Below, in pieces: positions 15,431 to 36,701 of a DNA stretch of 64,000 nucleotides. Source of the DNA: Nemertoderma westbladi (lineage: Eukaryota; Animalia; Xenacoelomorpha); contig JAUCBJ010007727.1 in assembly GCA_032718475.1 (NCBI GenBank), forward strand, positions 1,988-65,987, read 5' to 3'. The position numbers and the translations under genes were made by a program. Every line of letters starts with the position of its first letter. Position 1 is the first letter of the stretch. Under the pieces are notes generated by a model that made no database searches, was not told the origin of the DNA, and worked only from the letters and a program-made list of their open reading frames with translations.

Positions 15431-16171
15431 CTACAGTGAAATGTTAATCTACAGTGACTAGGGTGACTACATATACAGAAATGTTACTCTGCCGAAAACA
15501 ATAAACTAAAGTCAATAGAACAGGTTACTCAGATGTTATTTAACTGGGATGAATTTTTATTGCGTCGAGATTATATCCTATATATGCAATTAATTGCAGT
15601 TACTGTAACAACTGCACGGTAAATGATCTTACACTTACCCTACTACAATGGCTATCATTATTGGAGAATTCGCCACCAGCGGTGGCGAATTCATTTTTTC
15701 CGCTCCATTTGCTATAGAGTTGGATCATCCTTAGTCCTGTTTAATTACTTAATAATTTATACAATCTATGAATGTTAAACACATATAAAATACAAATCAT
15801 TGTTTTGTATTAATAAAATCCACTACCTCAGGATAATAAACGTAGCAGTGCAAATAATAATTAGAAGTACAACCATGAATTAAATATTAATTATTAATGA
15901 ATTTGCATGAAATGGAATCCAATTACCAACAACGTAACACGGCAGTTTATTGCAGTCGTTTACGAGTGCAATCTTCCATGTACCAGCTGAATTCGCACAT
16001 CAGTATATTTATTGTTCGTATAAATCTGGATTTTTATGTTGTTACCACTAAAGAGATAACAGCAGCCCAATGGCTACATTCTCACACCAGGAGATCTCGT
16101 ATCTTTATGGCGTAGTAGTTAGTGAAACTTTGGTGTGCAAACAAATTATTTGCATTGAAAAATATTTCATA

Positions 16172-16296
16172 CCTTTAGTAAACAGAGTGGAAGGGTTTAA
16201 TGTGGAAGATCACCCATGGTGGTGAAGAGGCATTCCTTTAGTAAACAGAGTGGAGGGGTTTAATGTGGAAGATCACCCATGGTGGTGAACAGGCAT
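16172..16296. repeat. 63-bp satellite, left remnant (~2 units)
   Basis: Same unit as 33184-36370, interrupted at GGCAT by the LTR element. Confidence 0.9.
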
Positions 16297-18180
16297 TATT
16301 GGAAGAGACGGTAACAATACCTGCAATATCCTACTGTAAAGTTTGTAAATCAAATCATAAATCCGACCTTCTCACCAAAACAGTAAACTCTAAGTAAGCG
16401 AATATATTGCAGTATCGATCTCTTATAACCGGTGAGGCAGAAAACAGTCTACGAGCAGACAAACTTCGATAAAACAAAATCCCGCGCAGCGAATCCTAAA
16501 ATCAGGCTGACTCACTGACGGACTAAGGGGCTCGTATACTTTGCCGCGGTGTGATTTATATGGTTTGGGCAAAGGGACGCTAGCTAGGTACAGAGGCAGA
16601 TATTTGGAGATGTCTAACTAGCGGGCAAAGCACAGTACGGACAAAGTTAATTTTATATATTTCGAGGTGTAAATAATTTCTAACGCGCGTGTGTTAATTC
16701 TGAATGGTCAAAACAGTTTTGCTCCTTCACATATATAATTACTGGGTACGGTGTGCATTTTACGAATATTCTAATTTTGTAACTTGTAGGTCCAATACTC
16801 ACGAATGATAAGGTTCCTTCCCCTCTTGCGTATTTCCAGGACTCAAATTCAGGCATAAGGTTAATACTACGCCCAGAATTCGGCAATTTTAGGTACCAGG
16901 TCCCTGATACTAAGAAGAGATGTGTTAGTTTACTACTGTAGGCGTACAGGTACTAATAGCTATCCTAGCTCCTATCTAGAATTTTAGTCACCCAGGTAGT
17001 CCGGGTAACTTCCTATTAGGGCGTTGGCGGGGACACGGTAGATGTTAGTATATCCCTGATAGCCTCAATTTATTTGCGCCTAGTGTAAACTGCCCTACCG
17101 CCCGAACGGTACAATCCCAATTCAGGTGAAAACACAGCAACCCCCCTAGCCTACAAGTTCTGATGTAATGGACACCGTTGTACGGCAAATAGTCGCACAC
17201 ACACCTGTACTTAGCAAGAGTTAAGCGTACAGTTTGCTGCACCCTAACCAATGTGTATGCCTTGTACCGGTGTGCCTACGTCCTATCTGCGTACTAGTAT
17301 CTCTGCTCTCTCTCCCTCCCCCCGTAGGAATGTGAAGGTCTACTGTGGGTTTTCCTGAATCAAGACAGTACAGTCCCTATGATGTAATTTTAGGCTTGCA
17401 GCGTGTCACTACGTCTACCTTTTGATCTTTTGGTCTTACACTTAGGTAGCAAGGATCGAACGCTGTCTAACCTTTCAGGCGATGGGCGAATAACTCCAAA
17501 TGGTATTGCGGGTTGTCTCTCGTCTACATTCCCGTGATGTTCCCGTTCATTGCTGCGGCCCGATCTCTAGCCGGCCATCCTGTCCCTGAGTTTGTTCACC
17601 GTAGTGAATCCATAGTAAAACAGATAGAAAAGCTGAGAGAATATTCTGACTTTATTACAGAAGATACAATACAATGTAATCTGAGAATAAACTAAGCACG
17701 GAATAAACAAATATCAGATAACTGAATAACTGAGAGAATAATAACTAATGAACAAATCGCACCCTTTTATAGCCAATTTGTGCCGCAATCAATCGAGAAA
17801 ATTCTCGATTGTTCTATGGGTTCTAACAAGGTTTTAAAGATAGCTATTGGTCCAGCTAATATATAACTTGCACGACATTGGTTACAATCAAATAACTACA
17901 GCCTCATTGGTACAGACAAATGCAATTAATTTGTAGCGGTTAATTTAAATGAGTTGAAATTCTGCACAAAAAATAATTCGCACTTACTAGGATTCGAACT
18001 CGATACCTACTACACATATAATTTCCAACGCTCTACCAACTGAGCTACTGAACCACTTGACCGATAGATGTACAAATGATAGAACCAATACGAATGAGAA
18101 CTCAAAGCAATCTTTACAAAGTTAATTCGAATAAAATAAAATTTTGAAAATCCACGGCATTTAGGGAATATAATTCTATA
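16297..18180 (-). repeat. 3' LTR (1884 bp)
   Basis: Direct repeat of 31300-33183 at offset 15003. One mismatch noticed (16320 C vs 31323 A). AATAAA on minus strand at 17069-17074. Confidence 0.97.
17968..18054 (-). ncRNA. tRNA-derived Pol III cassette in U3 of the 3' LTR (not a functional tRNA)
   Basis: GGTTCAG-TAGCTCAGTTGGTAGAGC (A box with intact D arm), GAGTTCGAATCC (B box), T6 run. Acceptor, anticodon and T stems do not pair. Confidence 0.7.
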
Positions 18181-18664
18181 CCGCTCCATGAAAACAGGAT
18201 ATTATCGTGCATAAAATATACGGTTTTCACCAATAATCAATCAAACTATAGAATACTTAGGGCGTACTTACATATTTACAATTAAATTTCAAACGATACT
18301 TCCTTTCTACGTAATGATTCGATACAAAAATAATTACAAATTCAAACTTTACGTATTTAAGGCTTTACTAAGTAAGTACAATATAAATCTAAATTAAATT
18401 CACCAATATAAATCTATTGCATCTCAGATATTGCATAAATTCAAACAATTACAAATACAAATAAATGAAAACAATAAGAAAGGCTCGCGAGTCTTCCATC
18501 TACTATTGCATCCCAAATATTGCATAAATTCAAGTAATTACAAATACTTTCGTACCTAAATGTAGATTGCATAAGTTTGGAATAATTACAAATATGAGTC
18601 TTTCTGAGCACAAAATTTTCTATCTATAAAACTTTCTATTTCACTGTAAATACAAATACTGCTT

Positions 18665-19000
18665 ATAAAATATAAATTGCATAATATTCGGAACAATATA
18701 AATTGCATAAGTTCGGAATAATATAAATTGCATAAGTTCGGAATAATATAAATTGCATAAGATCGGAATAATCACAAGTATAAAATATAAATTCTTACAA
18801 ATATAAGTCTTACTAAATATAGATATAAACTGCATAAGTTTAGAATAATATAAACTCCTTTGCATCTTCAAATATGAAACATAAATCTTTCAAATATAAG
18901 TTCCTTCTAAATATAAACTCTCTAAATTTCATAAATTCGGAACAATACAAATTGCATAAGTTCGGAATAATATAAATTGCATAAGTTCGGAATAAACACA
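18665..19000. repeat. Degenerate 25-bp tandem repeats in the element 3' UTR
   Basis: Unit TATAAATTGCATAAGTTCGGAATAA, about 4 tandem copies at 18670-18770 and further copies to 18995. Confidence 0.85.
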
Positions 19001-19077
19001 AATATAAATATAAATTCAAATAAATCACAAATCATAAGAAAGGCCCACGAGTCTTCCGTCCACCCTTGCCCTCCCCT

Positions 19078-20592
19078 TTATCGCTTAGTGGATCGAGCCC
19101 TGCCGCGTCCTCGAAAACTGCGCACAGGTGACTTTGCTCGCGATATGGGACTAATGGGGCGAGTCACTGATTTACTTGGGACGTTGAGGGACGGTGCGAC
19201 TATTTCCTCGCAAATTCGTCTGTTTGGCATCCCAAAACCTCGACCGATTCCTCGTGACCGATCAGTCGTCACTACAGTTGGTAGAACGTCTGGGAACGCG
19301 CGAGAAGTGGACGACGCAGACCCAAGAGTAGCTTGCGCCCCCTGTTGATCAGCTGGTGTATGTCCCGATCCTCCTACCGGTTCTCTTGGAAGTGATACCG
19401 TATCCCGAGTAACTCGAATAGTCGGCTCAACTCCCTTGCGTTCTTCTACATTAATAATTTTCTTCAATTGTTGGCCCACCTTCTGGACCCGTATGATCCT
19501 ACCCTGCCCGTCCTCCCGAGGGTGACGTGCAGACGGCGCAACCGGAGTGGCTGGTATATTCGTCGCCTCTAGGACCTCTTCTTCCTCGAATACGCTCGCT
19601 CGTATACGTTTGTGGTAAAACGCGGCTCGGTACGCCCATGCGACGGTTAACCAAGCTCCCTTGTTCCGCTTTTCAGTTCGGAAACGATCGAATTCACCAT
19701 ACGTAATCCGATTAACGACTTTCTGAAAATTCCACGTGTTTTTGTTATCCGGGTGAATTTGTAACAGATACTCGCGCACCACTCGGAATCCGCTGTCGTG
19801 GGGCAAAATATCGACAACCTCGATAAGTTCGTCATATTGGGGCATAGCGGAGATATATCCTTCTGACATCATCGTCTGAGGATTTACCGCCCAAAATCCA
19901 AGATGCGCTCTCATCGGAAACCGTCTTCTCTGTGCTGATACATGTTCGTCGGCTAAATCTTCCCACTCATCAAATAACTTCCTCACGAGTTTTACAGATT
20001 CGTGTTCATAAGGTATGTCTCTTAGTTGGCATTCAGATGCTCGATGTCCCTTTATATTGCAGTAAGTACATTGAGCCATAAATCTCCAGCAAGTATAAAA
20101 GGTATGAGACCCTTGATCCCCACACCATCCACAGATTAGCTGAGTCGTAGTAATGTGCTTTCCACTGCACTTTGCCATATGATGTCCAGCGACGCCACAT
20201 TTACTACACATCGTATTGGCAGGGTACCACACTCGTTCGTATATAAGATCTCCAATCGGTCGAGCGCTTCCTCCCACACTATAATCGTAATCATCTGGGT
20301 CTATGGGTTGGTAGGTTTCTGAAGGTTGTATACAAACTATAGCATCTGTTGCTTCAAGTTGTCGAATCTCCGTCTGAGATTTCTTCGGGAGGTTCCTTTC
20401 TATCTCAAGAAGTTCCTCTAAAGGATCGTCGGCGATCGTAGTAGTTACTTCGAATTCATCACCAAGGTGACCGATAGGCGCGCGCGTCTGCCGTGATTCA
20501 TCCGTAATTTCCACGATACGTTCTCCTTCATAGGGTAACAATGTAAACATAGATGGTCTTTCGATAAGAGATCCCGCACAGCGAAGATACAC
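19078..20592 (-). CDS. Extra ORF downstream of pol with three CCHC zinc knuckles (504 aa)
   Basis: CSKCGVAGHHMAKC, CGWCGDQGSHTFYTC, CTYCNIKGHRASEC. Acidic N-terminus and Arg/Ser/Gly-rich C-terminus. The ORF track starts at GTG; true start uncertain. Confidence 0.75.
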   Translation of the reverse strand: MYLRCAGSLIERPSMFTLLPYEGERIVEITDESRQTRAPIGHLGDEFEVTTTIADDPLEELLEIERNLPKKSQTEIRQLEATDAIVCIQPSETYQPIDPDDYDYSVGGSARPIGDLIYERVWYPANTMCSKCGVAGHHMAKCSGKHITTTQLICGWCGDQGSHTFYTCWRFMAQCTYCNIKGHRASECQLRDIPYEHESVKLVRKLFDEWEDLADEHVSAQRRRFPMRAHLGFWAVNPQTMMSEGYISAMPQYDELIEVVDILPHDSGFRVVREYLLQIHPDNKNTWNFQKVVNRITYGEFDRFRTEKRNKGAWLTVAWAYRAAFYHKRIRASVFEEEEVLEATNIPATPVAPSARHPREDGQGRIIRVQKVGQQLKKIINVEERKGVEPTIRVTRDTVSLPREPVGGSGHTPADQQGAQATLGSASSTSRAFPDVLPTVVTTDRSRGIGRGFGMPNRRICEEIVAPSLNVPSKSVTRPISPISRAKSPVRSFRGRGRARSTKR

Positions 20593-20888
20593 GTCTCGAA
20601 ATATGCTAAATCCTGCTCGAGTAAAGGCATTGCTGTCTTTGCGAGCTTCGCTGTACTTTCTGATAATTCCTTTATACCAAATATAGTGTAGTCTTTTGCT
20701 CCAAATCGTTCGAATGAAGCTGCCGCCTCCTCTTGGATATCATATCCCCATCTCGGCTCTCCTTGTATCCCTTTCTCCATAATTAGAGGTGTAGTTACAT
20801 AATCATTACTACTAGAGGGAATACAACAGAGTTTGTGGTTAGTTGTGAGGAGACGTGAGAGTTTCGTCTGCCTTTTGGGCTTCGACAA
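20445..20888 (-). CDS. Small ORF overlapping the 5' end of the zinc-knuckle ORF
   Basis: 147-codon open frame with internal ATG (MEKGIQGEPRW) and an HLCLHC motif. May be the frameshifted N-terminus of the next ORF. Confidence 0.4.
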   Translation of the reverse strand: MSKPKRQTKLSRLLTTNHKLCCIPSSSNDYVTTPLIMEKGIQGEPRWGYDIQEEAAASFERFGAKDYTIFGIKELSESTAKLAKTAMPLLEQDLAYFETCIFAVRDLLSKDHLCLHCYPMKENVSWKLRMNHGRRARLSVTLVMNSK

Positions 20889-21442
20889 CGCTCTAACCTC
20901 CTACCCATAGCCTAAGATCTAGGGTTTCTTTAATGACACGCTGCTTCTTATCTAAAATTTTTTGCCGAAATAAAAACGAATTTGGGCTAAACTGGCCGTG
21001 AGTCTAAAATACTCACTTTTTGATCCCAAACTATTATCAGAAAATAAGCAGTCAAGAATTAGTAATAAATATAGGGGAGTCTATTTATTGACGTAACTTA
21101 TTGAAACAAGACCGTGTAAAATTTAATTAAAAATTTTAAGAAAGGCTCGCAAGTCTTCCTCTCTTATTTCTCTAATTTTAAGTTCCACCCGACTGTACCC
21201 TGAAATCTATTCACTGGAGAAAATTTTAAAAATTTTCAAATCCAAATGGATTGTCTAAAATTTCGAAAATGTCTCAATATTGTGAGTTCCAAGTAGAATT
21301 CCATTTCTTATACCTACAAATCCCGCTCCTATGTGACACATAAGGGTACCACCCTCAATGTTCACATATAAAGACAATGGAATTCTACCGCTGTCCTTAC
21401 TACGGTGTACAGGTACGTGGAAATCTATTTTTAAACTCCTAA

Positions 21443-24400
21443 TTATTTACTAGTATTAGGTGGAGATTTGTAGTCTCCAGACTCGTTACGAGTCTCTTCA
21501 AGGAGTACGAGACGTTGAGTCGGTCTGTCTACTGTACGACCGTCAATTGTCCGTACCGTCACAGTTCTTGTCGCTCCATCCATAGATGGATGTGTGGCTA
21601 AAATGACACCTGTTATCCAGAAGCGTCTTTTTAGATTCACTTCTGCCAACAGCACGTGATCTCCCGGCTTTAATGCGCGGGTGTTATTATACCAAGTTGT
21701 TCTGGCAGAAATAGAGGGCAAATAATGGTTTTGCCATATTTCCCAGAATTTGTTAGCCAGTAGTTGCGTGATTTTCCACGCTTTTCTACCGTAGCTGTCG
21801 CTTTCTATTGGAATAGAAATCGGCGTTAATGTCGTCGGTGCCTGCATAAGCAGGTGTGCCGGTGTTAAAGCAAACTGGGATTGTTTGTCATCGGGTACTA
21901 ATACTATTGGTCTAGTATTTAGTATTGCCTCGATTTCAACAAACAATGTTGTCAGTTGGTCGTCTGTTAATATGTGGTTTACTGGAATGACCTTTGCCAT
22001 GGCTGTCTTTATAGATCTAATCAGTCTCTCCCAGACTCCGCCTCTCCAAGGACTATCTGGAGGATTAAACTTCCAAACAATCTTGTGAGGTTGTAGTTCG
22101 TTCGAGATTTGATCATGATCTAATTTCTTAAAGGCTCTAGCAATCTCATTCCGAGCACCAACGAAGTTTGTCCCTTGGTCTGAGTACAAGCATTTTACTA
22201 GTCCGCGTCTAGCGATAAATCGCCGCAGTGCTAGTATAAACGCGTTGGTGGAAAGATCCATCACACGTTCAATGTGAACTGCCCTACTGGACATACATGT
22301 GAAAATCAGTCCCCAGCGTTTTACTAGTATACGTCCACGTTTCGTATGTATGGGACCAAAGCAATCAATTCCAGTCTCTGTAAAAGGTGGTCTGAATGCT
22401 TGAAGTCGTGCTTGTGGTAGTTCACTCATTTCTTGGGTACCTATTCTAGAATGTACCTTTTTACAAATAATACACGTACGTGTCACTGAACTTAATGCTT
22501 TACTGGGTCTAATTAATACAAATCTAGTACGTAAGTAGGAAAGACAGTGGTGTCTTCCAGCGTGTTTCAGATGTAGATGTGCGTCCAGTATCATTGCACG
22601 TTGTAGTTCGTGGTGTTGCGGTATTATTATTGGGTACCTAAAGTTCGTGTTAAAGTCAATGTTTTGAAGCCGAGATTTATGACAAATTAAGCCATTATAA
22701 ATAATCGGACTCCAACTCAGTATTGGTGACGACTTGATTGGTTGACCTTGATTTATAGATGTGAATTCGCGCGCGAAATATCGCAGTTGGTAATGGCGAA
22801 TTAATTTAATCTCACACCTGTCAATCTCAGCCAATGTAAGTCGACGTGTAAAGTAACGTTTGCCTTTAACGTATTGTACAAAACGTACAATCCACGCTAG
22901 TTTTCGGCAAGCGTTCGACCAAGAATCTGTTAGGTTTACAATACGGTCGACATGAGTATTTGTGACGTCATCAGGTAAGTCAATGGAGAACTTGGAAGGT
23001 TTTGATTTACTAGAAGGGCCCACGGGTCCGCCGGTAGGTATTCCCTTGTTGACTGTTGATCCGTCCGGGTCTACAAGTAATTTGTCCTTCTTTGTCTTCT
23101 TACCTTGATTGTCAGTACTTTGTAAGTCGATCGTCAATGGTGGTTTGAACTCTATGGGATCAGTGGGTTTCGGTAAACTTATTTTTCTGCCGACATTAAT
23201 CCCAGGTCTCACCATAGGTTGCAAGTTCGGTATGTCTCTTGAGCGCAGAGTAACACCTGTATTTACATTAGCGTAGGTACTACCCACATCTGTAATACAT
23301 GAGGTTTCACCGTGCTTATGGTTGCTCAAGTGTGTCAAAATTGGTAGTTTGTCAATACAAGGCCGCTCCAATAGGGAAACTGCGGCTTTATCGTTAGTCA
23401 ATACATTACTAGTGTCTAGTCGACTGTCTAGTAATGTGTCTGGCGATACGTCTGGTAACGTATCTGGTTGTTTGTCAATAGAAGGCCGCTCCAATAGGGA
23501 AACTGCGGCTTTACTGTTTGTCAGTGTGTTACTAGCGTCTGGTGGAACATTTTGTGATATGTCTGGCAAAATGTCTGGTTGGCTGTCTAGTAACATGTCT
23601 GGTTGACCGTCTGGTAACGTGTCTGGTTGACCGTCTGGCGATATGTCTGGTGTAGAAAGGCTCGCAAGTCTTCCTCTCTTGACCTTTGAAGTTATATCTT
23701 TCCATTTCGCCTTCGGTTTTTTCTTGAGTTTCGCCGCCGTCGTCTTTTTCTTTGTCTTCCCCTTTTTTGGTTTCTTGATTTCGGCGTCCTTGGGAATGGT
23801 GTTGGACTTGTTGTCGTATAACGGAGGCCAATCTTGTGTCGATTTCTGCAAGAATTGGGGTCCGTGTTGCCAAAATTCTTTGTTCTCCGGTTTACAGAAT
23901 TCCTCAGGCATCATTCCTCGCGACGCAATATCAGCTGGGTTTTGTGGTCCGGGACAATGTCGCCAATCCCCTTTTATTGAACGGTCTAGAATTTCCGCGC
24001 GACGGTTAGCAACGAATGTCTTGAATTCGAGTGTGTCGTTGTTTATGTAAAATAAAACCAACGTCGCGTCAGTCCAATAAAATATCTGTAAACTCGACTG
24101 TAGTTCTGTCTGTATGAGGTTCACGATGGTGGTTGACAGGGTTGCGGCTTGTAGCTCGGCTCGTGGTGTCGTCATATACTTAGTAGGCATGGTCTTAGCC
24201 TTAGAAGTAATGAGCGAAACATCGAACTCGTCTGATTCTACTTGTCTGCGCAAGTACGCTGCCACACCAAAACCGTTGTCACTGGCGTCAGAAAAGCAGT
24301 GTAGTTCCAAGTTGTCAGGAAATGTACTTTGTAATGGAAAGTAAACCCTGGGTATGAAATAATCCTCTAGCGAAGATAATTCCGCCTCCCAGGTCTTCCA

Positions 24401-25893
24401 TAAGTCCACTTGGTCTGATGAGATCGGCTCGTCCCATGTTAGTCCATCCTTCCATATACTGCGCATATAAATGCGGGCTTGCAGTATCACTGGACTGATG
24501 AATCCTAACGGATCGAACAATCGGCTCAATTTTGACAAGCATGATCTCTTGGTCAGTGTGTTCTCTTGACTGTCCAGTCTCACTTTCACTCGAAAGTTGT
24601 CTGTGTTTGGGTCCCAAAAGAGCCCCAACACCTTAGTCGTCGGTAGTGGTTCGAACTCTAGGTCTATGTCACCACCTCCACGCTCAGTAGTTCCGAATGA
24701 GTCTACTAATTCGGCACTGTTTGAGGCGAATTTGGTGAGGTTAAAACCTCCGCCCGCCAAGCAGTCCCGTAATTGATGTGCTACTGTTGTAGCACGTTCT
24801 ACTGTGTCGCAACTCTGTAATCCGTCATCAACGTAAAAGTCACGCTCCACAATTCTAATTATCTCTGGGTCATATAGATGTTTCTGATCTCTAGCGGCCT
24901 GCTTTAGGGCGTACATCGTACAATTTGGGCTGTCTCTGGCACCGAAAACGCGAACTTGCATTTGGTAAGTCGCCGGTGGTAGACTTAAATCTCCTTCCGG
25001 GTACCAGAGGAACCGCAAACTGTCTCTGTCTCGCTCTAACGCCTTTACTTGGTGAAACATCGCTTCAACGTCACAAGTAAAAGCTACTTGACGCTGACGG
25101 AAGCGCATAATCACCCCCATAAGATAATTATTCATGTTCGGTCCATCCATCAACTCACTATTGAGGGACATTCCCTCAAACAGAGCCGCACAGTCATTGA
25201 CTACACGTACTTTGTCTGGTTTGTCGGGGTGTCTCACGTAGTGATGTGGCAAGTAATACGTTTGGTCGGTCACTCGCTCCGGGTTAGTCATTCGGATAGC
25301 GTATCCCTTTGTCAAATACGTCTCCATCTGAGTGTTATACTGCAGATGGGCTTTCTCGTCTTTTAATAGACGTTGTCGGATTGAGTGTAGACGTCTTAAA
25401 GCCAGTGGATAGTTGTTTATAAGTTTAGGACTTTGGCTACGCCATAACATCCCTACCTCATAATGTCCGTCTTTCGTCTGGTGGATAGTATCTTCCATGA
25501 TCTTCAGAGATTGTTTCTCCTGTTCCGACATACAAGGTTCATAGCTACCAGGTTCAGCTGTATCTTGTTCTAACCACCTGATAGTCTTCTCCGTTAATTC
25601 TTTGTCCAAGGCGGCTTGTTCCAACTGATGATTTCTCAACGCGTCATCATCGATATCGACGGGCACTGTTGAGGTTATTGGGGTAGGTAGACTCGCAAGC
25701 CTATCATCTGTCGTCGATGGAATCTCTAGCTGACTCGTCTTCCCCCCAAGTTCTAAACTCACCTTGTGGGTTAGCTGCTCCTTGTGACTTATCATACTAG
25801 TTACACGTCTGTCATGTTTTGTCGACTGTAGTGTAGTATGGTTCACGTCGTGTGAAAAGGAATGAATTGAATTTGTAGTTAATAAACTACATG
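21443..25893 (-). CDS. pol: BEL/Pao Pol: RT, RNase H, integrase, C-terminal DUF5641-like domain
   Basis: YYLPHH, DVEAMFHQV, FYVDD; LHCFSDAS, PRAELQAA, NPADIASRG; H..H..CxxC, GIDCFGP, SDQGTNF, GGVWERL. The frame stays open upstream of the 25846 ORF call up to the insertion boundary. Confidence 0.96.
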
Positions 25894-26096
25894 CAGGGCC
25901 GGATTAACCAGTAGGCTAATAAGGCTGAAGCCTTAGGGCCATTGAAAAAAGCGGTCACTTTCCTACAAAAATGTTGAATTGTAATGAGTTGAATGTAATG
26001 AGAGTTAATAGGAAGCCTATAAAATAGTCTGTAAAAGGGGCACTTTACATCATTAGTTTCTTAGTATATGGACCCGTCCGCGTCCGTCCATGTAGT
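25894..26096. mobile_element. One-ended hAT-MITE remnant interrupting gag-pol
   Basis: Begins CAGGGCCGGATTAAC (hAT-like TIR) and is flanked by CTACATG at 25887-25893 and 26097-26103. Removing 210 bp restores one continuous frame. Confidence 0.75.
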
Positions 26097-29000
26097 CTAC
26101 ATGTACTCTGTACATCGTCTTCCTCGTCACTTACGTCTAGTGTGCGCACAGGCGCTCGAGTATACCACCCTATCGGCGTTCTGCAGGCGTATGCGTTTCC
26201 CGCTACAACTGCCGATGGTCTGGTTTCCCACACCTGATGTAGGTTGAATTGGTCCGTCCCGATCAGCATTGCTACCGATCTATAATTGACAGGACATTCT
26301 GGTACACCAAGGTGTCTGAAATACTTACGGTCCTCTAGAGATTGTTCCGGCACTGGACCTAGTAGGTTACTAAAGTCCTTCGTGGCCGCAAAGGTTAGAT
26401 CTCTAAAAGGTAACAAAGACCTCTCCCTCTCGCTGTGCTGCGATTTCGGAAGAAGAGAGTCTAAGTCCAACTTAACTCGTGTCACTGGTATTGCACGCTG
26501 TCCGTGCATACTACTTACTGTATAACTGACGTGCTTACCTTGTTTTAGATCCGTCACGACGTCAGCTATCTTTTCGTCCACGTAGCTATGAGATGAGGCT
26601 GAATCTAGAATCGCATAGATCCTCTTGCTCCCCTTTGTGCCAGTAACCTTAATCGGGATTACACTGAATCCCTTCAGTTGATCAGTGGTCAGAAGCGCGA
26701 TCGACGGTTGTTCGTCTCCATTAGAATATTCGTCGTCGTCTTCTGATTCTTCGTCCGACGATCCGGATTGTTCTGAGAAGCAATCCTCAATATGGGTCAC
26801 GAAGGTTGGAGTCGTTTTTGATTCTCGTTTTCTATAGGCCGCATCACATCTCGCTGCTGCTTCCGGGTGTTCCCTGGCGAAGCGTTTCGTCGGCGTGTGG
26901 CTGTCTGTGTGGAGCAGACCGTCGTGGTTGCGTCCACAGGATGGACAAGTGTCAGTATTTGGGCAATCCTTACGCACGTGTCCGTGTCGCGTACACCGCC
27001 AACAAGAGTCCAGTGGCCGTATTTGCAGCCGTCGTTCTTCCGAGTTCAACTCGCGAAATTGTCGACAACCTCGTAACTTGTGACCGATATACCGCTTACC
27101 TAGATGCTCGCAGTATTGGCAGCCACTGAAGTCGGTACCAAGTTGCTGTCTCGTTTGTTTTGTCCCAATGGGCGCAGATACCCTACCTCCGTCCGAGAAT
27201 TGTCGTGATTCCGTCGGTGTGGTGTAAGTGGCCGTCTTAGTGGATGTTGTCTGGGGTTTTTGTCGGTTGGAGGATGGCAATGTGATCCCTTCTGCCACGA
27301 TGTGCTGGTCGGTGTAGTTAGATCGAGTTTCTACTACCGCCTCCCTGGATATTAAAAGGTACACATCTTCTAATTTTAAGAATCCTCCCCGCTCTTCTCG
27401 CTGGTATTCGACCTTCCTCCACTCCCGACGAAGTCGATGGTGGAGTCGTCCTATGATCTTTAATAGGACTGTAGGGGTATTCCCGTAATCAAGTTGTCCA
27501 ATTGATCTTAAGGTAGTGATAGCGTTCTTGATCTCGTCAGCTAGTTTTAGTAAGTCGACGGGTTTAGTGATAGCCCCTCCCTTACAGAGTTCCTCTATTA
27601 CTGACCTGGCCATGCTCACTGTACCTCCGTATATCGAAGTTAAACGATCGTACGCTAGTTCGAAAGCGTCCGGTACACCGACGAAAGTCTCCGCCAAACG
27701 TTTAGGTTCTCCTGACAACGTTTGAAGCAGGTAATTGAACTTCTCCCGTGATGTAAAGGCGCACACGGCGATCTGGGATTCGATATAGTCTACGAAGGTA
27801 TGCCAGTGTTTTGAGCTACCGGAAAACTTCGGTGGTTGTTGTACCGGCAATCCTTGTCTGGCTGCGAATTTCGCTATCTCCTCGGCAACGTCCAGAGTTT
27901 CGCGTCCTTGGTTGGTAGTCTGGTTGATGTTCTCCCTTCTTGGCGCTTTTCCCTGATACGATGTGTGTTTTGAAGGTACCGGTCTTTGTGGTTCCTTCGG
28001 GTGTCTATTGTGTTCGAATTCGGAATTTCTCGAACTGTCGGTGTAACCTTCCTCCAGACGTTCCTCGATCTGAGCCAACTTATTGACAACTGGTCGCAGG
28101 ATGTCGGCGAACTGTTGTGTACTAATTGCGTCCGTTGGTTGTAACGCCTTCTGTGTTGGTGTATTCTGTGGAGGATTGTCTGCAAAGGAGTTGTCTGAAC
28201 GCTCGCGTTTGTATTCATCGGCCGCCCCTGTTCTAAATACCTCGCGTTTCGGGTAATCCGATTCGCTCGAAGTACTACTATCATCCGGATATGGTGGTCG
28301 ACGTGCTCGCGTTCGTTGCGTCGTACGAATTCTAACGGTTCGTTTCGGAACATCGTCCACTGATCTCCGTTGTTCGGTAGGCTCACAAGTCTTCCTCGAA
28401 GTCGTAGATTGCGATGTAAATTGGTTGAATGGTCGCGTCTCCACTGTTCTCCGTTGTTCGGTAGGCTCACAAGTCTTCCTCGAAGTCGTAGATTGCGATG
28501 TAAATTGGTTGAATGGTCGCGTCTCCACTGTTCTCCATTGTTCGGTAGGCTCACAAGTCTTCCTCGAAGTCGTAGATTGCGATGTAAATTGGTTGAATGG
28601 TCGCGTCTCCACTGTTCTCCGTTGTTCGGTAGGCTCACAAGTCTTCCTCGAAGTCGTAGATTGCGATGTAAACTGAATCGGTGGTCGGACGACCGCGTTT
28701 GAATCCAAAGGCCTTGTAGGCCGAAATGTCATTGGGTATTCGTAGTGCGTAACGGGTTTAGGTGTCAAAGGTGGACTCACCTGTTTTGTCGTCAGTAGTG
28801 CAGGTCCGACTAATAAACTACTACGATCTGTAATCGGTGGGTTACTTACCTTGACTTTCGGAATAGGCGACGACGTTGCTCTTGGCGGTGTAAACTTGTC
28901 CGGAATAACAAACCTGTGCTCCGTCACACCATGGATAGGAGAGATATCGCTGCTACCAGCAATCGAAACAGGTTCCTTAGTCGTAACCGGTGCAAACATA

Positions 29001-30487
29001 TGAGTCACCTGTGGGAATCGTTGACACAAGTCCTTTACTAATTGTCGTTCCCGTCCGGGTGCTCCCACGCTTCCTTCTTTCTTTCGTTCCTGAATTTGGC
29101 GATGTCTTACCTCTATCTGGTCCAAGTCATGTCCGTCTCGAGATCTCATTGATCGATCGCGGGCCCTTTGATCCAGATCTTCCTCAGCGTTCGCTAATTC
29201 TCTCGCCTTCTTCTCAAGTTCGAAATGAAGTTTAGCTGTCTTCTCTCGTTGTTCCGTTTGTCGTTGTTGCGCCTCAAATTCTGCTTGTCGTATAGCGGAT
29301 TGAGCCTTTATTTGCCGTGTTTTCATTTCGGCCCGTGCTTCCGAAACTAACCTGTCTCGTTCTAATTCCGCCGCTGCCGCTGCCGCTGCCGCTTGTCGCT
29401 CTGACTCTGCCGCTTGTCGCTCTGACTCGGCCGCTGCCGCTGCCGCTTGTCGCTCTGACTCTGCCGCTGCCGCTGCCGCTTGTCGGGCAATGTCTACCTC
29501 TAACCTTTCTACTTCAGCTGCTTCTAATTCAGCTTGTTCCTGTAGATGAGAGATTCTCGCTTTATTCGCAACGCGTAGCTTCTCTTCCTCTACTGCTGCC
29601 TGCATCACTAGAAGTTGAGCTTGTTCCTCCATTTCTCGTCGTTGTCGGTAGAATTCTTGCTGTTGTCGAGCAACTTCTGACGTAACCATACTTCCCTCGC
29701 CAATTTCGCTACGAATACTTACCAACGATTGATCCAATATTCCTGGTGCCGATTCGATTTGTGCGAGCGAAGTTTCCCTCGTAGCCTCCGGCACGGTTTC
29801 CCAATCTCCGACGTCCTCGCCGCACATGCGTAAGTGATCCGTCAGGTGTTTCAATTGTCCATCCAGTCGGTACAGTTCCTGTTCTTCTTCGGGTTGTAAT
29901 AATTCGTCCGAAACTGACTCACCTAACAACTGATCCGCTTGTTCCTGTTGTATCTGTCTAATCGTCGACTTAAACTGAATCAGTTTCTCTCTAGCGATCA
30001 TTAGTTTCTCGAGGATTCTAAGTTGAGCATCCATGTCCTGTCTCTGTCTAGCTAGATCTTGTAGACCAATTAGGTTATCGACGGACTTGTGTACTCTACT
30101 TTGTACTCTAACCTGGAGGGTGTAGAACTCGAATCGAGACATCGGAGCGGTCAACTCGTCTAATATGCGATGACCTTCTCCAATACTCCTGGTTATATGC
30201 GCCATATATCCTCCGACGCTTCTAACCACACTTTCTGTGCTTCCTGCTGAACTTACCATTTCCGTTTCCCTATATCTAGGTTGCGGAACAGTTAGAAAGT
30301 CCTCGGTCCTGCCGTCGCCTCGTACTACGGCATCCGGTACTCCCGTTGGATGTACTGGTGACGCACACGGTGTAGGTTCGGTAGGCTCGCGAGTCTTCCC
30401 CTGTTGTTCCTCCGCTGCTGACTTATCCGCGTCACACGAGTCATAGTCGGTAGGTGTATTCTTCGTATAGTCTTGTTTGTCACTCAT
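26045..30487 (-). CDS. gag: BEL/Pao Gag and aspartic protease
   Basis: DUF1759-like PKFSG...W..F...EKFNYL, BEL-type triple Cys/His cluster (CQYC..H..C, CWRC..H..C, CPSCGRNHDGLLH), protease AILDSAS, TPIGW. The stop at 26045 lies inside the insertion. Confidence 0.95.
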   Translation of the reverse strand: MSDKQDYTKNTPTDYDSCDADKSAAEEQQGKTREPTEPTPCASPVHPTGVPDAVVRGDGRTEDFLTVPQPRYRETEMVSSAGSTESVVRSVGGYMAHITRSIGEGHRILDELTAPMSRFEFYTLQVRVQSRVHKSVDNLIGLQDLARQRQDMDAQLRILEKLMIAREKLIQFKSTIRQIQQEQADQLLGESVSDELLQPEEEQELYRLDGQLKHLTDHLRMCGEDVGDWETVPEATRETSLAQIESAPGILDQSLVSIRSEIGEGSMVTSEVARQQQEFYRQRREMEEQAQLLVMQAAVEEEKLRVANKARISHLQEQAELEAAEVERLEVDIARQAAAAAAESERQAAAAAAESERQAAESERQAAAAAAAAELERDRLVSEARAEMKTRQIKAQSAIRQAEFEAQQRQTEQREKTAKLHFELEKKARELANAEEDLDQRARDRSMRSRDGHDLDQIEVRHRQIQERKKEGSVGAPGRERQLVKDLCQRFPQVTHMFAPVTTKEPVSIAGSSDISPIHGVTEHRFVIPDKFTPPRATSSPIPKVKVSNPPITDRSSLLVGPALLTTKQVSPPLTPKPVTHYEYPMTFRPTRPLDSNAVVRPPIQFTSQSTTSRKTCEPTEQRRTVETRPFNQFTSQSTTSRKTCEPTEQWRTVETRPFNQFTSQSTTSRKTCEPTEQRRTVETRPFNQFTSQSTTSRKTCEPTEQRRSVDDVPKRTVRIRTTQRTRARRPPYPDDSSTSSESDYPKREVFRTGAADEYKRERSDNSFADNPPQNTPTQKALQPTDAISTQQFADILRPVVNKLAQIEERLEEGYTDSSRNSEFEHNRHPKEPQRPVPSKHTSYQGKAPRRENINQTTNQGRETLDVAEEIAKFAARQGLPVQQPPKFSGSSKHWHTFVDYIESQIAVCAFTSREKFNYLLQTLSGEPKRLAETFVGVPDAFELAYDRLTSIYGGTVSMARSVIEELCKGGAITKPVDLLKLADEIKNAITTLRSIGQLDYGNTPTVLLKIIGRLHHRLRREWRKVEYQREERGGFLKLEDVYLLISREAVVETRSNYTDQHIVAEGITLPSSNRQKPQTTSTKTATYTTPTESRQFSDGGRVSAPIGTKQTRQQLGTDFSGCQYCEHLGKRYIGHKLRGCRQFRELNSEERRLQIRPLDSCWRCTRHGHVRKDCPNTDTCPSCGRNHDGLLHTDSHTPTKRFAREHPEAAARCDAAYRKRESKTTPTFVTHIEDCFSEQSGSSDEESEDDDEYSNGDEQPSIALLTTDQLKGFSVIPIKVTGTKGSKRIYAILDSASSHSYVDEKIADVVTDLKQGKHVSYTVSSMHGQRAIPVTRVKLDLDSLLPKSQHSERERSLLPFRDLTFAATKDFSNLLGPVPEQSLEDRKYFRHLGVPECPVNYRSVAMLIGTDQFNLHQVWETRPSAVVAGNAYACRTPIGWYTRAPVRTLDVSDEEDDVQSTCRLHGRTRTGPYTKKLMM
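28358..28680 (-). repeat. 84-bp in-frame tandem repeat in gag (~3.7 copies)
   Basis: Encodes QFTSQSTTSRKTCEPTEQRRTVETRPFN repeats. Confidence 0.95.
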
Positions 30488-31288
30488 TTCGGTAGTTGTA
30501 AGTCAAGTAAAGTGAGTGTCAAAGTATCGGGTTTACCGTATTTATATCTAAACGGTACTAATTACAGTCTTATAAAATTAGCCTACCGGCCGATTTTATA
30601 GCAGATGGATAAAATTAGCCTAAACGGCCAATTTTACAGCAAATGAATGTCACGGAATAAGTATATAATAAAATTAGCCTAGCGGCCAATTTTATAACAA
30701 ATAAATCGGATAATGATATGCGTTATCAAAAGGTAAATTAAATACAATAATACGGACTAATTCAGCAATGAACAAAGAAATCATACGGAATGCATAAATA
30801 CTTGAGACAGTGGAACCCACAATAATTTTTAACTAATACGGTAATGCCTAACTTATTTATGCAACTTTTCGAACTCACCCACTCCAATAATTCTCCAGAA
30901 AAACAGATTCCCAGATACAAACCGAACGTGAACCTTTCCGTTTTTAACGTTGCGGACGAAACGCGATTTTCCCAACCAAAGTTGTTGAGTTATCTATCTC
31001 CCAAACTTGCTAAACACGGTCTTGCTCCCGTTACAGTCTAGAAATGAGTTCTGAATCCTGAAAAAACAAAAGAGTTAGGTTTTACTTTACGAAAATTTTG
31101 TACCGGTACAATATGGTATTTAAACCCTTTTTAAACACCGGTATTCAATTCCAAAAATATTTTACACGCGGTTCAAATCAAATTTTATTTCAAAATATTA
31201 GCACTTAGCTAATCAAATACAAAATTTTTACCTCAAAATACAAAATTTTCAAATAACTTTAGTCCTACCGAACCGTAGTTCAGTAAAA

Positions 31289-31299
31289 CACATTCCTAC
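31289..31299 (-). promoter_or_regulatory. Primer-binding-site position, non-tRNA type (GTAGGAATGTG)
   Basis: Directly abuts the 5' LTR, lacks TGG, and is the exact complement of minus-strand LTR sequence at 32327-32337. Confidence 0.65.
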
Positions 31300-32733
31300 T
31301 ATTGGAAGAGACGGTAACAATAACTGCAATATCCTACTGTAAAGTTTGTAAATCAAATCATAAATCCGACCTTCTCACCAAAACAGTAAACTCTAAGTAA
31401 GCGAATATATTGCAGTATCGATCTCTTATAACCGGTGAGGCAGAAAACAGTCTACGAGCAGACAAACTTCGATAAAACAAAATCCCGCGCAGCGAATCCT
31501 AAAATCAGGCTGACTCACTGACGGACTAAGGGGCTCGTATACTTTGCCGCGGTGTGATTTATATGGTTTGGGCAAAGGGACGCTAGCTAGGTACAGAGGC
31601 AGATATTTGGAGATGTCTAACTAGCGGGCAAAGCACAGTACGGACAAAGTTAATTTTATATATTTCGAGGTGTAAATAATTTCTAACGCGCGTGTGTTAA
31701 TTCTGAATGGTCAAAACAGTTTTGCTCCTTCACATATATAATTACTGGGTACGGTGTGCATTTTACGAATATTCTAATTTTGTAACTTGTAGGTCCAATA
31801 CTCACGAATGATAAGGTTCCTTCCCCTCTTGCGTATTTCCAGGACTCAAATTCAGGCATAAGGTTAATACTACGCCCAGAATTCGGCAATTTTAGGTACC
31901 AGGTCCCTGATACTAAGAAGAGATGTGTTAGTTTACTACTGTAGGCGTACAGGTACTAATAGCTATCCTAGCTCCTATCTAGAATTTTAGTCACCCAGGT
32001 AGTCCGGGTAACTTCCTATTAGGGCGTTGGCGGGGACACGGTAGATGTTAGTATATCCCTGATAGCCTCAATTTATTTGCGCCTAGTGTAAACTGCCCTA
32101 CCGCCCGAACGGTACAATCCCAATTCAGGTGAAAACACAGCAACCCCCCTAGCCTACAAGTTCTGATGTAATGGACACCGTTGTACGGCAAATAGTCGCA
32201 CACACACCTGTACTTAGCAAGAGTTAAGCGTACAGTTTGCTGCACCCTAACCAATGTGTATGCCTTGTACCGGTGTGCCTACGTCCTATCTGCGTACTAG
32301 TATCTCTGCTCTCTCTCCCTCCCCCCGTAGGAATGTGAAGGTCTACTGTGGGTTTTCCTGAATCAAGACAGTACAGTCCCTATGATGTAATTTTAGGCTT
32401 GCAGCGTGTCACTACGTCTACCTTTTGATCTTTTGGTCTTACACTTAGGTAGCAAGGATCGAACGCTGTCTAACCTTTCAGGCGATGGGCGAATAACTCC
32501 AAATGGTATTGCGGGTTGTCTCTCGTCTACATTCCCGTGATGTTCCCGTTCATTGCTGCGGCCCGATCTCTAGCCGGCCATCCTGTCCCTGAGTTTGTTC
32601 ACCGTAGTGAATCCATAGTAAAACAGATAGAAAAGCTGAGAGAATATTCTGACTTTATTACAGAAGATACAATACAATGTAATCTGAGAATAAACTAAGC
32701 ACGGAATAAACAAATATCAGATAACTGAATAAC

Positions 32734-32913
32734 TGAGAGAATAATAACTAATGAACAAATCGCACCCTTTTATAGCCAATTTGTGCCGCAATCAATCGAG
32801 AAAATTCTCGATTGTTCTATGGGTTCTAACAAGGTTTTAAAGATAGCTATTGGTCCAGCTAATATATAACTTGCACGACATTGGTTACAATCAAATAACT
32901 ACAGCCTCATTGG
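32734..32913 (-). promoter_or_regulatory. Putative LTR Pol II promoter
   Basis: Three CCAAT boxes (32909-13, 32880-84, 32849-53) spaced ~30 bp, TATAAAAG at 32774-32767, and Inr-like TTAGTT/TCAGTT at ~32749 and ~32734. Confidence 0.65.
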
Positions 32914-32970
32914 TACAGACAAATGCAATTAATTTGTAGCGGTTAATTTAAATGAGTTGAAATTCTGCAC

Positions 32971-33057
32971 AAAAAATAATTCGCACTTACTAGGATTCGA
33001 ACTCGATACCTACTACACATATAATTTCCAACGCTCTACCAACTGAGCTACTGAACC
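32971..33057 (-). ncRNA. tRNA-derived Pol III cassette in U3 of the 5' LTR
   Basis: Copy of 17968-18054. Confidence 0.7.
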
Positions 33058-33183
33058 ACTTGACCGATAGATGTACAAATGATAGAACCAATACGAATGA
33101 GAACTCAAAGCAATCTTTACAAAGTTAATTCGAATAAAATAAAATTTTGAAAATCCACGGCATTTAGGGAATATAATTCTATA

Positions 33184-36100
33184 GGCATTCCTTTAGGAAA
33201 CAGAGTGGAAGGGTTTATTGTGGAAGATCACCCATGGTGGTGAACAGGCATTCCTTTAGGAAACAGAGTGGAAGGGTTTACTGTGGAAGATCACCCATGG
33301 TGCTGAACAGGCATTCCTTTAGGAAACAGAGTGGAAGGGTTTACTGTGGAAGATCACCCATGGTGGTGAAGAGGTATTCCTTTAGGAAACAGAGTGGAAT
33401 GGTTTACTGTGGAAGATCACCCATGGTGGTGAACAGGCATTCCTTTAGGAAACAGAGTGGAAGGGTTTACTGTGGAAGATCACCCATGGTGGTGAAGAGG
33501 TATTCCTTTAGGAAACAGAGTGGAATGGTTTACTGTGGAAGATCACCCATGGTGGCGAACAGGCATTCCTTTAGGAAACAGAGTGGAAGGGTTTATTGTG
33601 GAAGATCACCCATGGTGGTGAACAGGCATTCCTTTAGGAAACAGAGTGGAAGGGTTTACTGTGGAAGATCACCCATGGTGCTGAACAGGCATTCCTTTAG
33701 GAAACAGAGTGGAAGGGTTTACTGTGGAAGATCACCCATGGTGGTGAAGGGTATTCCTTTAGGAAACAGAGTGGAATGGTTTACTGTGGAAGATCACCCA
33801 TGGTGGCGAACAGGCATTCCTTTAGGAAACAGAGTGGAGGGGTTTACTGTGAAAGATCACCCATGGTGGTGAACAGGCATTCCTTTAGGAAACAGAGTGG
33901 AGGGGTTTACTGTGAAAGATCACCCATGGTGGCGAACAGGCATTCCTTTAGGAAACAGAGTGGAAGGGTTTACTGTGGAAGATCACCCATGGTGGTGAAC
34001 AGGCATTCCTTTAGGAAACAGAGTGGAGGGGTTTACTGTGAAAGATCACCCATGGTGGTGAACAGGCATTCCTTTAGGAAACAGAGTGGAAGGGTTTAAT
34101 GTGGAAGATCACCCATAGTGCTGAACAGTCATTCCTTTTGGAAACAGAGTGGAAGGGTTTACTGTGGAAGATCACCCATGGTGGTGAACAGGCATTCCTT
34201 TAGGAAACAGAGTGGAGGGGTTTACTGTGAAAGATCACCCATGGTGGTGAACAGGCATTCCTTTAGGAAACAGAGTGGAAGGGTTTACTGTGAAAGATCA
34301 CCCATGGTGGTGAACATGCATTCTTTTAGGAAACAGAGTGGAGGGGTTTACTGTGAAAGATCACCCATGGTGGTGAACAGGCATTCCTTTAGGAAACAGA
34401 GTGGAAGGGTTTACTGTGAAAGATCACCCATGGTGGTGAACATGCATTCTTTTAGGAAACAGAGTGGAGGGGTTTACTGTGAAAGATCACCCATGGTGGT
34501 GAACAGGCATTCCTTTAGGAAACAGAGTGGAAGGGTTTACTGTGAAAGATCACCCATGGTGGTGAACATGCATTCTTTTAGGAAACAGAGTGGAGGGGTT
34601 TACTGTGGAAGATCACCCATGGTGGTGAACAGGCATTCCTTTAGGAAACAGAGTGGAGGGGTTTACTGTGAAAGATCACCCATGGTGGTGAACAGGCATT
34701 CCTTTAGGAAACAGAGTGGAAGGGTTTACTGTGAAAGATCACCCATGGTGGTGAACATGCATTCTTTTAGGAAACAGAGTGGAGGGGTTTACTGTGAAAG
34801 ATCACCCATGGTGGTGAACAGGCATTCCTTTAGGAAACAGAGTGGAAGGGTTTAATGTGGAAGATCACCCATGGTGGTGAACAGGCATTCCTTTAGGAAA
34901 CAGAGTGGAGGGGTTTACTGTGAAAGATCACCCATGGTGGCGAACAGGCATTCCTTTAGGAAACAGAGTGGAAGGGTTTAATGTGGAAGATCACCCATAG
35001 TGCTGAACAGTCATTCCTTTTGGAAACAGAGTGGAAGGGTTTACTGTGGAAGATCACCCATGGTGGTGAACAGGCATTCCTTTAGGAAACAGAGTGGAGG
35101 GGTTTACTGTGAAAGATCACCCATGGTGGTGAACAGGCATTCCTTTAGGAAACAGAGTGGAAGGGTTTACTGTGAAAGATCACCCATGGTGGTGAACATG
35201 CATTCTTTTAGGAAACAGAGTGGAGGGGTTTACTGTGAAAGATCACCCATGGTGGTGAACAGGCATTCCTTTAGGAAACAGAGTGGAAGGGTTTAATGTG
35301 GAAGATCACCCATGGTGGTGAACAGGCATTCCTTTAGGAAACAGAGTGGAGGGGTTTACTGTGAAAGATCACCCATGGTGGCGAACAGGCATTCCTTTAG
35401 GAAACAGAGTGGAAGGGTTTACTGTGGAAGATCACCCATGGTGGTGAACAAGCATTCCTTTAGGAAACAGAGTGGAAGGGTTTAATGTGGAAGATCACCC
35501 ATAGTGCTGAACAGTCATTCCTTTTGGAAACAGAGTGGAAGGGTTTACTGTGGAAGATCACCCATGGTGGTGAACAGGCATTCCTTTAGGAAACAGAGTG
35601 GAAGGGTTTAATGTGGAAGATCACCCATAGTGCTGAACAGTCATTCCTTTTGGAAACAGAGTGGATGGGTTTACTGTGAAAGATCACCCATGGTGGCGAA
35701 CAGGCATTCCTTTAGGAAACAGAGTGGAAGGGTTTACTGTGGAAGATCACCCATTGTGGTGAACAGGCATTCCTTTAGGAAACAGAGTGGAAGGGTTTAC
35801 TGTGGAAGATCACCCATGGTGGTGAACAGGCATTCCTTTAGGAAACAGAGTGGAGGGGTTTACTGTGAAAGATCACCCATGGTGGTGAACAGGCATTCCT
35901 TTAGGAAACAGAGTGGAGGGGTTTACTGTGGAAGATCACCCATGGTGGTGAACAGGCATTCCTTTAGGAAACAGAGTGGAAGGGTTTAATGTGGAAGATC
36001 ACCCATAGTGCTGAACAGTCATTCCTTTTGGAAACAGAGTGGAAGGGTTTACTGTGGAAGATCACCCATGGTGGTGAACAGGCATTCCTTTAGGAAACAG

Positions 36101-36370
36101 AGTGGAGGGGTTTACTGTGAAAGATCACCCATGGTGGTGAACAGGCATTCCTTTAGGAAACAAAGTGGAGGGGTTTACTGTGAAAGATCACCCATGGTGG
36201 CGAACAGGCATTCCTTTAGGAAACAGAGTGGAGGGGTTTACTGTGAAAGATCACCCATGGTGGAGAACAGGCATTCCTTTAGGAAACAGAGTGGAAGGGT
36301 TTAATGTGGAAGATCACCCATGGTGGTGAACAGGCATTCCTTTAGGAAACAGAGTGGAAGGGTTTACTGT
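33184..36370. repeat. 63-bp satellite, ~50 units with recurring variants
   Basis: Unit GGCATTCCTTTAGGAAACAGAGTGGAAGGGTTTACTGTGGAAGATCACCCATGGTGGTGAACA. Confidence 0.97.
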
Positions 36371-36701
36371 TGAAGATTTTTACTGTTATTATTTATTTAA
36401 TGAAAATCGGTTGCGATAAACTTATGTATATTCGTGTACCTTTACCTTTATATTCGTGTACTTTTAGAGAAAAAAACATACTTCTATCAAAATACACTAT
36501 AAAAATATACGGGACAATAGTAAAGTGTAAAGAAGAAAAAAAAAGGGGGGGGGGGGGGGGGGGGGTGAAAGTTCACTCTTTAGTATGCGTAATACCTTTT
36601 TAGAAAAAATGTATCATGAAAAAAAGTGAAAAAGAAACACTATGAAATAAAGTGAAAGTGACATAGTTTAGTTGCAAGGTGATGCTGAGTCTTAATCTCA
36701 C

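Follow-up and report, generated by a model that had tools for sequence, protein, structure and literature searches.

The window analysed here is a 64,000-nt stretch of Nemertoderma westbladi DNA (assembly GCA_032718475.1, contig JAUCBJ010007727.1, forward-strand positions 1,988 to 65,987). On its minus strand, it carries a long terminal repeat (LTR) retrotransposon with a total length of 16,887 bp, which interrupts an array of 63-bp tandem repeats. The two LTRs of the element are 1884 bp each, with an LTR-to-LTR spacing of 15,003 bp, and differ by a single mismatch (16320 C versus 31323 A). On the coding strand, both copies read TATAG...CAATA, the terminal inverted repeat of the element is limited to 3 nt (TAT/ATA), and GGCAT is present on both flanks as a target-site duplication (TSD; Table 1). 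Comparison of the LTRs and flanks confirms the LTR length, the termini, the terminal inverted repeat and the GGCAT duplication, as given in an initial annotation of this DNA.

Termini, family and coding content of the element

The GGCAT duplication alone cannot fix the ends of the element, because the target has an A before and a T after GGCAT. AGGCATT is thus present on both sides of the insertion, and a duplication of 6 or 7 bp, with an LTR shorter by 1–2 bases, fits equally well. The target unit is ACAGGCATTCC in 36 of 39 matching units of the downstream array, with one GGCAT per unit; therefore, the empty site is known and the duplication is certain. In addition, the inner junctions of both LTRs retain the terminal T and A, which favours a 5-bp TSD and TA...TA ends. 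An end at the CA located three bases inside the U5 terminus was rejected, as the flank does not fit the target. The initial annotation had taken GGCAT and the divergence of the repeats to fix the ends; this holds in part, since AGGCATT fits too, and the LTR ends are fixed as TA...TA by the inner junctions and by contigs from other insertions.

These other copies were read from contigs of public runs X1, X2, X4 and X5, of which X1 and X2 represent one sample. Runs of one organism, which come from three studies, contain the family, as does one run labelled as a second organism, there at a share of 0.28. At the TATAG end, at least two X4 contigs switch to foreign DNA exactly at 33183 and at least one X1 record does so at 33184, while run X5 repeats the inner junction of the window element at 33183. 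At the CAATA end, at least two X4 contigs switch to foreign DNA exactly at 31300, and one X1 contig joins foreign DNA at a variant end, in which TA is retained. No change at a level of at least 1% is listed at 31300–31301 or 31289–31299 among 210, 209, 115 and 17 contigs, in which changes near contig ends can be hidden. Since other insertions have TA ends, these ends are a trait of the family and not a peculiarity of the window copy. The element is recently inserted and multi-copy, and its TA termini are family-wide. As to the ends of other copies, to which the initial annotation had pointed, the foreign junctions keep TA, and the TSD is confirmed at the window site only.

Specific targeting of the satellite was rejected, as the other junctions have unrelated flanks. 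All four runs contain some copies in which 27 bp are duplicated at the 5′ LTR junction (31289–31311), covering the LTR end and a portion of the primer site. One X2 contig keeps the LTR end and exactly the 11-nt primer site (to 31289) before continuing into other DNA, which could be chance. A 23-nt LTR-end pattern has no match in metagenome contigs, and the viral contigs searched contain no relative of the element.

Profile searches of the predicted proteins find DUF1759, Peptidase_A17 and DUF5641, all above cut-off, and match Integrase_H2C2 in pol. The order of protease, reverse transcriptase (RT), RNase H and integrase between the LTRs is that of BEL/Pao elements, and PF05380 is present in all of the at least 120 RT–RNase H matches listed. 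We file the element under BEL/Pao because of these predicted proteins, despite its departures from the profile of the International Committee on Taxonomy of Viruses (ICTV). The best relatives among the matches listed are 43–44% identical, their named hosts being cnidarians, molluscs, echinoderms, a ribbon worm, crustaceans and fish; we label them Sinbad-type because they have the integrase loop of Sinbad and Kobel.

The gag and pol open reading frames (ORFs) share one frame and lie 142 nt apart (25903–26045), with stops between them and a consensus donor site for splicing close to the end of gag; in most relatives, a single long ORF is present instead. Pol contains a spacer of ~270 residues between RNase H and integrase. 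The extra ORF behind pol has a basic tail, its start is overlapped by a 151-codon ORF (20445–20900), and it has no homolog among 7998 candidates, with Atlas matches all under 0.9. Tandem repeats lengthen the element in pol (23342–23651, 123 and 24 bp), gag (28356–28672, 84 bp) and the 3′ non-coding region (18669–18995, 25 bp).

The initial annotation had called for placing the RT in a BEL/Pao phylogeny, and this was done in part, in an RT–RNase H tree with neither named references nor an outgroup. The tree has 88 rows, comprising the window element, one row per locus with a single ORF over the RT–RNase H region and 18 named proteins, with other matches left out. The window branch measures 1.4 changes per site and its placement has a support of 0.30.

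Table 1. Positions of the element, its parts and its surroundings in the window
Feature	Position	Strand	Basis
TSD GGCAT, left copy	16292..16296	+	flank comparison, empty array units
3′ LTR, 1884 bp, TATAG...CAATA	16297..18180	-	LTR comparison
3′ LTR copy of the 11-nt candidate self-primer	17324..17334	-	sequence
Polypurine-tract-like GGAGCGG adjoining the 3′ LTR, same place as relatives' GGGGCCGG/GGGGAGCC tracts	18181..18187	-	sequence, relatives
Extra ORF behind pol, 553 codons stop to stop, three CCHC-like knuckles	19078..20739	-	zf-CCHC E 0.004, below cut-off
Pol ORF: RT (YVDD at 357), Peptidase_A17/RNase H, integrase (H2C2, DDE with E1292), DUF5641	21443..25903	-	ORF, profile search, model
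Integrase loop residues S1284-P1285-W1286	22046..22054	-	W1286 aligned with Gln215 of prototype foamy virus
Gag-protease ORF: DUF1759, cysteine knuckles, DSAS protease motif; stop 142 nt before pol ORF	26045..30502	-	ORF and profile search
Primer-binding position GTAGGAATGTG, directly behind 5′ LTR, no TGG	31289..31299	-	sequence
5′ LTR, 1884 bp, TATAG...CAATA	31300..33183	-	LTR comparison
11-nt candidate self-primer, LTR positions 847–857, exact complement of 31299–31289	32327..32337	-	complement search
TATAAA box, LTR position 410	32769..32774	-	motif match only
tRNA-like stretch in U3, A- and B-box-like motifs and T run	32979..33058	-	seen in sequence
63-bp tandem array interrupted by the element	33183..36377, 50.7 copies; 2.1 further copies at 16168–16297	.	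repeat search
TSD GGCAT, right copy	33184..33188	+	flank comparison

LTR ends of the relatives and the integrase loop

Among 87 related loci, 14 reveal the 5′ LTR end through a repeat pair, the remainder being too short or cut. This end is ACA in 13 of them and ATA in one, L046 (6973–13998), a complete element with identical 541-bp LTRs, TGT...ATA ends, a 5-bp TSD and an ordinary integrase loop; no TSD is seen in L068, L070, L082 and L083. The LTR starts with TGT in 15 of 15 readable loci, the start of L071 being guessed by script, and lies behind a GGGGCCGG-, GGGGAGCC- or G-rich tract. In the window, GGAGCGG followed by TAT aligns with this purine tract followed by TGT. The sequence before the 3′ LTR, ATGGAGCGG at 18189–18181, had been regarded as a weak polypurine tract; it is not unusually weak for the group, given the tracts that relatives carry there. 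TA at both ends is peculiar to the window family among those examined, and a single ATA end occurs in an ordinary relative. BEL/Pao elements are also present in contigs of bacterial metagenome-assembled genomes (L081–L087), which are most likely animal host DNA binned with bacteria.

The structural model of the integrase has a predicted local distance difference test score of 80.8 and resembles the integrases of prototype foamy virus (PFV), human immunodeficiency virus (HIV), Rous sarcoma virus (RSV) and Ty3; a phmmer search with the integrase core alone found no solved structure, while a profile search found structures. In the window, Ser-Pro-Trp precedes the catalytic Glu1292, where the relatives have x-Ser-His (Ser 95%, His 96%, n = 154). 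Trp1286 falls on PFV Gln215 in a gapless profile alignment, with PFV residues numbered around Glu221. Trp is found at this position in 0 of 154 relatives and in 0 of 117 readable motifs among 120 further matches listed. Furthermore, the window integrase departs from the relatives at 42 conserved columns, and the helix residues equivalent to HIV K156 and K159 are retained.

The initial annotation had proposed that end recognition by the integrase is altered. The end-contacting residue W1286 does differ, but Pro-Trp is common in Tas-type elements, which presumably end TG...CA, and L046 has its ATA end with an ordinary loop. Likely, therefore, the integrase tolerates the TA end rather than having switched to it, and tolerance is the simpler reading. 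We regard as unlikely a switch of specificity in which TA ends would be selected by the Trp that lies where integrases stack on the base opposite the C of CA. According to the pertinent passages of the sources, the integrase loop inserts between the viral DNA strands (PMC3228729), and RSV Gln151, the equivalent of PFV Gln215, stacks on the guanine opposite the C of CA (PMC7955051). The position of W1286 would fit a switch, as would the absence of Trp from the relatives and the matched change at both termini, where both 3′ ends are ATA. However, Pro-Trp is the usual motif at this loop in the integrases of Tas, Cer7, Mabel, Cer101, Spirobel and Hydra31, as given in the relevant entries of PMC8220671 supplement 2, and since 42 conserved columns differ, one more change means little. 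In addition, L046 keeps the His of the loop, and the window integrase keeps the residues matching HIV K156 and K159, both of which argue against a switch.

Primer site, self-complementarity and proposed mechanism

According to the ICTV profile, BEL/Pao elements are primed by host tRNA and their replication is poorly understood (PMC8742986). The 18-nt tRNA-Arg/tRNA-Gly primer site of that profile is absent from the window element, as no TGG follows its 5′ LTR. An 11-nt stretch inside the LTR is complementary to the bases behind the LTR, at offset 0 from the LTR end; this match length is reached at 13 of 13,078 internal positions and in 10 of 5000 shuffles. The 11-nt site is the best duplex in the LTR, at −23.5 kcal/mol versus −13.2 kcal/mol for the next, and the pairing can be lengthened by a 7-bp helix on its upstream side and by a purine run on its downstream side. 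The self-priming rule of Neumann et al., as worded in the section of PMC6317226 that defines it, asks for a match of at least 10 nt located 0–5 nt behind the LTR; the window element has such a match and no tRNA site. Neither the missing tRNA site nor the self-complement was mentioned in the initial annotation. A spliced primer in the window LTR was rejected, as the best such match is 8 nt, inside the 6–11-nt background of this long LTR.

The relatives likewise lack a tRNA site, with TGG behind the LTR in one of the 14. In 13 of the 14, a 10–15-nt match to the bases behind the LTR is found only across a GT–AG intron inside the LTR. The predicted introns have GTAAG-type donors and pyrimidine-rich AG acceptors, the donor of L082 being assigned from the homologous site. 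The fourteenth relative, L049, lacks the intron in its 3′ LTR (6694–7103), where an uninterrupted 11-nt match is joined at the acceptor that is present in the 5′ copy; its LTR copies are 88% alike and may come from different insertions, and the 3′ LTR is possibly a processed copy. Across ten separate families, the observed match length is reached by 0–5 of 300 shuffles and by 0–4 of 300 internal 35-mers, and 1 of 90 cross-family pairs reaches 10 nt. Moreover, between the sisters L082 and L083, three bases before their common donor have changed, as have the three bases of the primer site that pair with them. A blind search of 69 upstream regions (18 of the 87 loci were dropped for having less than 250 nt upstream) returned 15 matches, 10 of them 0–4 nt behind ACA or ATA, versus 1 on the opposite strand. 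Four of the 15 were already known and several are sister copies, and the matches in L017 and L078 look like chance.

These results bear on the alternative that the TA ends are real, that a tRNA fragment or another host RNA serves as primer and that the 11-nt complement is a chance match. The LTR is long (1884 bp), the chance of such a match is ~0.001–0.002 and thus above zero, and half-tRNA priming exists in other groups as far as the relevant passages describe it. However, the match starts exactly at the LTR end and has the length seen in the relatives, and all 14 relatives show equivalent pairing with different sequences; we consider priming by host RNA improbable.

Our overall reading, which we regard as probable without being secure, is that the window contains a young, multi-copy BEL/Pao element with TAT...ATA ends and a 5-bp TSD, likely self-primed by an 11-nt LTR RNA and with an integrase that likely tolerates TA. 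The ends, the TSD, the BEL/Pao proteins, the missing TGG, the complementarity and the covariation are seen directly; the priming steps are drawn by analogy with Tf1, whose RNA uses its first 11 bases to pair with the primer site and is then cut by RNase H after base 11, as outlined in PMC7175516. LTR positions 847–857 of the RNA would fold back onto the 11 nt behind the LTR, and the RNA would be cut behind position 857, by RNase H as in Tf1, leaving a primer flush with the U5 end. First-strand synthesis would then begin flush with the U5 end. The purine tract touches the U3 end, and neither DNA end would have to be trimmed much, if at all, which may weaken selection for CA and ease drift from CA to TA. 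Because the TATA box lies at LTR position 410, the primer is suggested to lie inside the leader, unlike in Tf1.

In Sinbad-type relatives, the primer would arise only after splicing of the LTR intron. After the strand jump, the unspliced 3′ LTR would supply the intron again, whereas splicing of the 3′ LTR as well would remove it, as L049 suggests; the window element carries the intron-less, unbroken form of the primer. We put forward with reserve, as a possibility that may well fail, the broader proposal that Sinbad-type BEL/Pao elements of marine animals use no tRNA, that the spliceosome builds their primer from the LTR exon–exon joint so that only spliced RNA is copied, and that the window lineage fixed the spliced form, had flush ends by virtue of its priming and lost the CA rule, becoming the first BEL/Pao family in which both ends are TA. 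If true, a self-primer that is splice-built in most relatives would be a second route to tRNA-free priming, with copying tied to host splicing.

Several observations weigh against this account. About six foreign junctions are visible, none with both flanks, and the TSD length is read at one site only; the TATAG-end variants rest on 40 of 136 rows, among the matches listed. Flush-ended relatives keep TG or CA (U5 end: L019, L049, L077, L022 and L056; U3 end: L006 and L015), which shows that TA takes more than flush ends. The window element is loosely tied to the spliced relatives, given its long branch and weak placement in the tree, and no intron is seen at its primer. A Tf1-like U5 helix is not general: own pairs rank 2–19 of 21, that of the window element 3 of 21, and on these ranks a general helix was rejected. 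The TATA box and initiator-like motifs (TCAGT at LTR positions 448 and 456) imply an RNA start near LTR position 440, so that the primer is not the first 11 nt as in Tf1; these motifs, and an AATAAA at 525, are motif matches only. Finally, the absence of Trp from the 154 relatives leaves room for a real switch of the integrase.

It is very improbable that the boundaries are one base off (AT...AT, 1882 bp, 7-bp duplication) or that the window copy alone mutated after insertion: AGGCATT does lie on both sides of this single insertion, but a shifted boundary would require the T and A at both inner junctions, and at those with foreign DNA, to be coincidence, the sole relative with a clear TSD has 5 bp, TAT/ATA aligns, after the common purine tract, with TGT/ACA in relatives, and neither version yields TG...CA.

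Other features complete the picture of the window. The tRNA-like stretch in the U3 region of the 5′ LTR, for which the A- and B-box consensus was used, has a second copy at 17976–18055 (minus strand) in the 3′ LTR and is perhaps a captured short interspersed element or a small RNA polymerase III unit; ARAGORN and Rfam called nothing in the element, this stretch included. Outside the element, a 45-bp tandem array at 55772–61179 has 120 copies that are 99% alike, and three RVT_1 fragments of another reverse-transcriptase element (3159–4031, 13959–14702 and 39488–39958) are 91–96% alike and lie in both orientations.

Comparison with known systems

TA...TA ends are known for the Arabidopsis copia element AtRE1, as described in part of bioRxiv 10.1101/137141, and the relevant rows of PMC8220671 supplement 1 give 13 Gypsy elements of the annelid Lamellibrachia luymesi with a TATA motif and 5-bp TSDs. 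The annelid elements contradict the earlier statement that such ends are confined to a few plant copia elements. The window element resembles AtRE1 and the annelid Gypsy elements in having TA at both ends, and its 5-bp TSD is also found in the annelid list; however, those elements belong to other superfamilies, and the annelid LTRs are 117–191 bp. Both BEL/Pao elements in the annelid list end TG...CA, unlike the window element.

We found no report of a BEL/Pao element that has TA...TA ends, primes itself or builds a primer by splicing in a search of titles, abstract openings and text passages that had subscription journals, Repbase reports and bioRxiv supplements outside its scope, and a term search of the accessible portion of PMC3118150 gave no mention of PBS (primer-binding site), primer or tRNA. 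TA...TA ends appear to be new for BEL/Pao elements, but examples exist in other LTR elements and in animals. A family that has amplified with both of its ends TA offers a natural test of the strictness of the CA rule in LTR integrases.

The initial annotation had also held that finders based on TG...CA ends and primer sites would miss the family. TATA is already in the motif list of LTR_retriever, as far as its excerpted description goes; however, the missing tRNA site and the 15,003-bp spacing, which narrowly exceeds the -D 15000 setting stated in the methods excerpt of PMC8220671, could hide the element. Tools that require a tRNA site, or limit LTR spacing to 15 kb, would overlook the family.

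Compared with Sinbad-type BEL/Pao elements (Sinbad, Kobel and Saci6), the window element has the same order of gag-protease, RT, RNase H and integrase, with DUF1759, Peptidase_A17 and DUF5641, and its best matches carry the xASH integrase loop, as do Sinbad and Kobel. GGAGCGG is a candidate for the polypurine tract, which measures ~10 nt in BEL/Pao elements, and is like the tracts of relatives in place and make-up. In contrast, the window element has split gag and pol, an extra knuckle ORF and a best identity of 44%, and it ends TA...TA, whereas Sinbad ends TGT...TCA in the sequence portion given in PMC554778. It also lacks the 18-nt tRNA site of the ICTV profile, and its LTR of 1884 bp and length of 16,887 bp compare with 0.2–1.2 kb and 4.2–10 kb in that profile (PMC8742986).

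Self-priming is known for the Tf1/sushi group and for the plant elements Tcn1 and TAR, according to the sections of PMC6317226 and PMC4600332 that treat them. The window element is like these and like Tf1, Tf2 and Tj1 in having no tRNA site and a 5′ LTR stretch that complements the bases right behind the LTR, and the match length of 11 nt is common to the window element and Tf1. By this analogy, the element likely works like Tf1 but is not a member of Tf1/sushi: Tf1/sushi, Tcn1 and TAR are Ty3/gypsy or copia elements, whereas the window element has BEL/Pao proteins.

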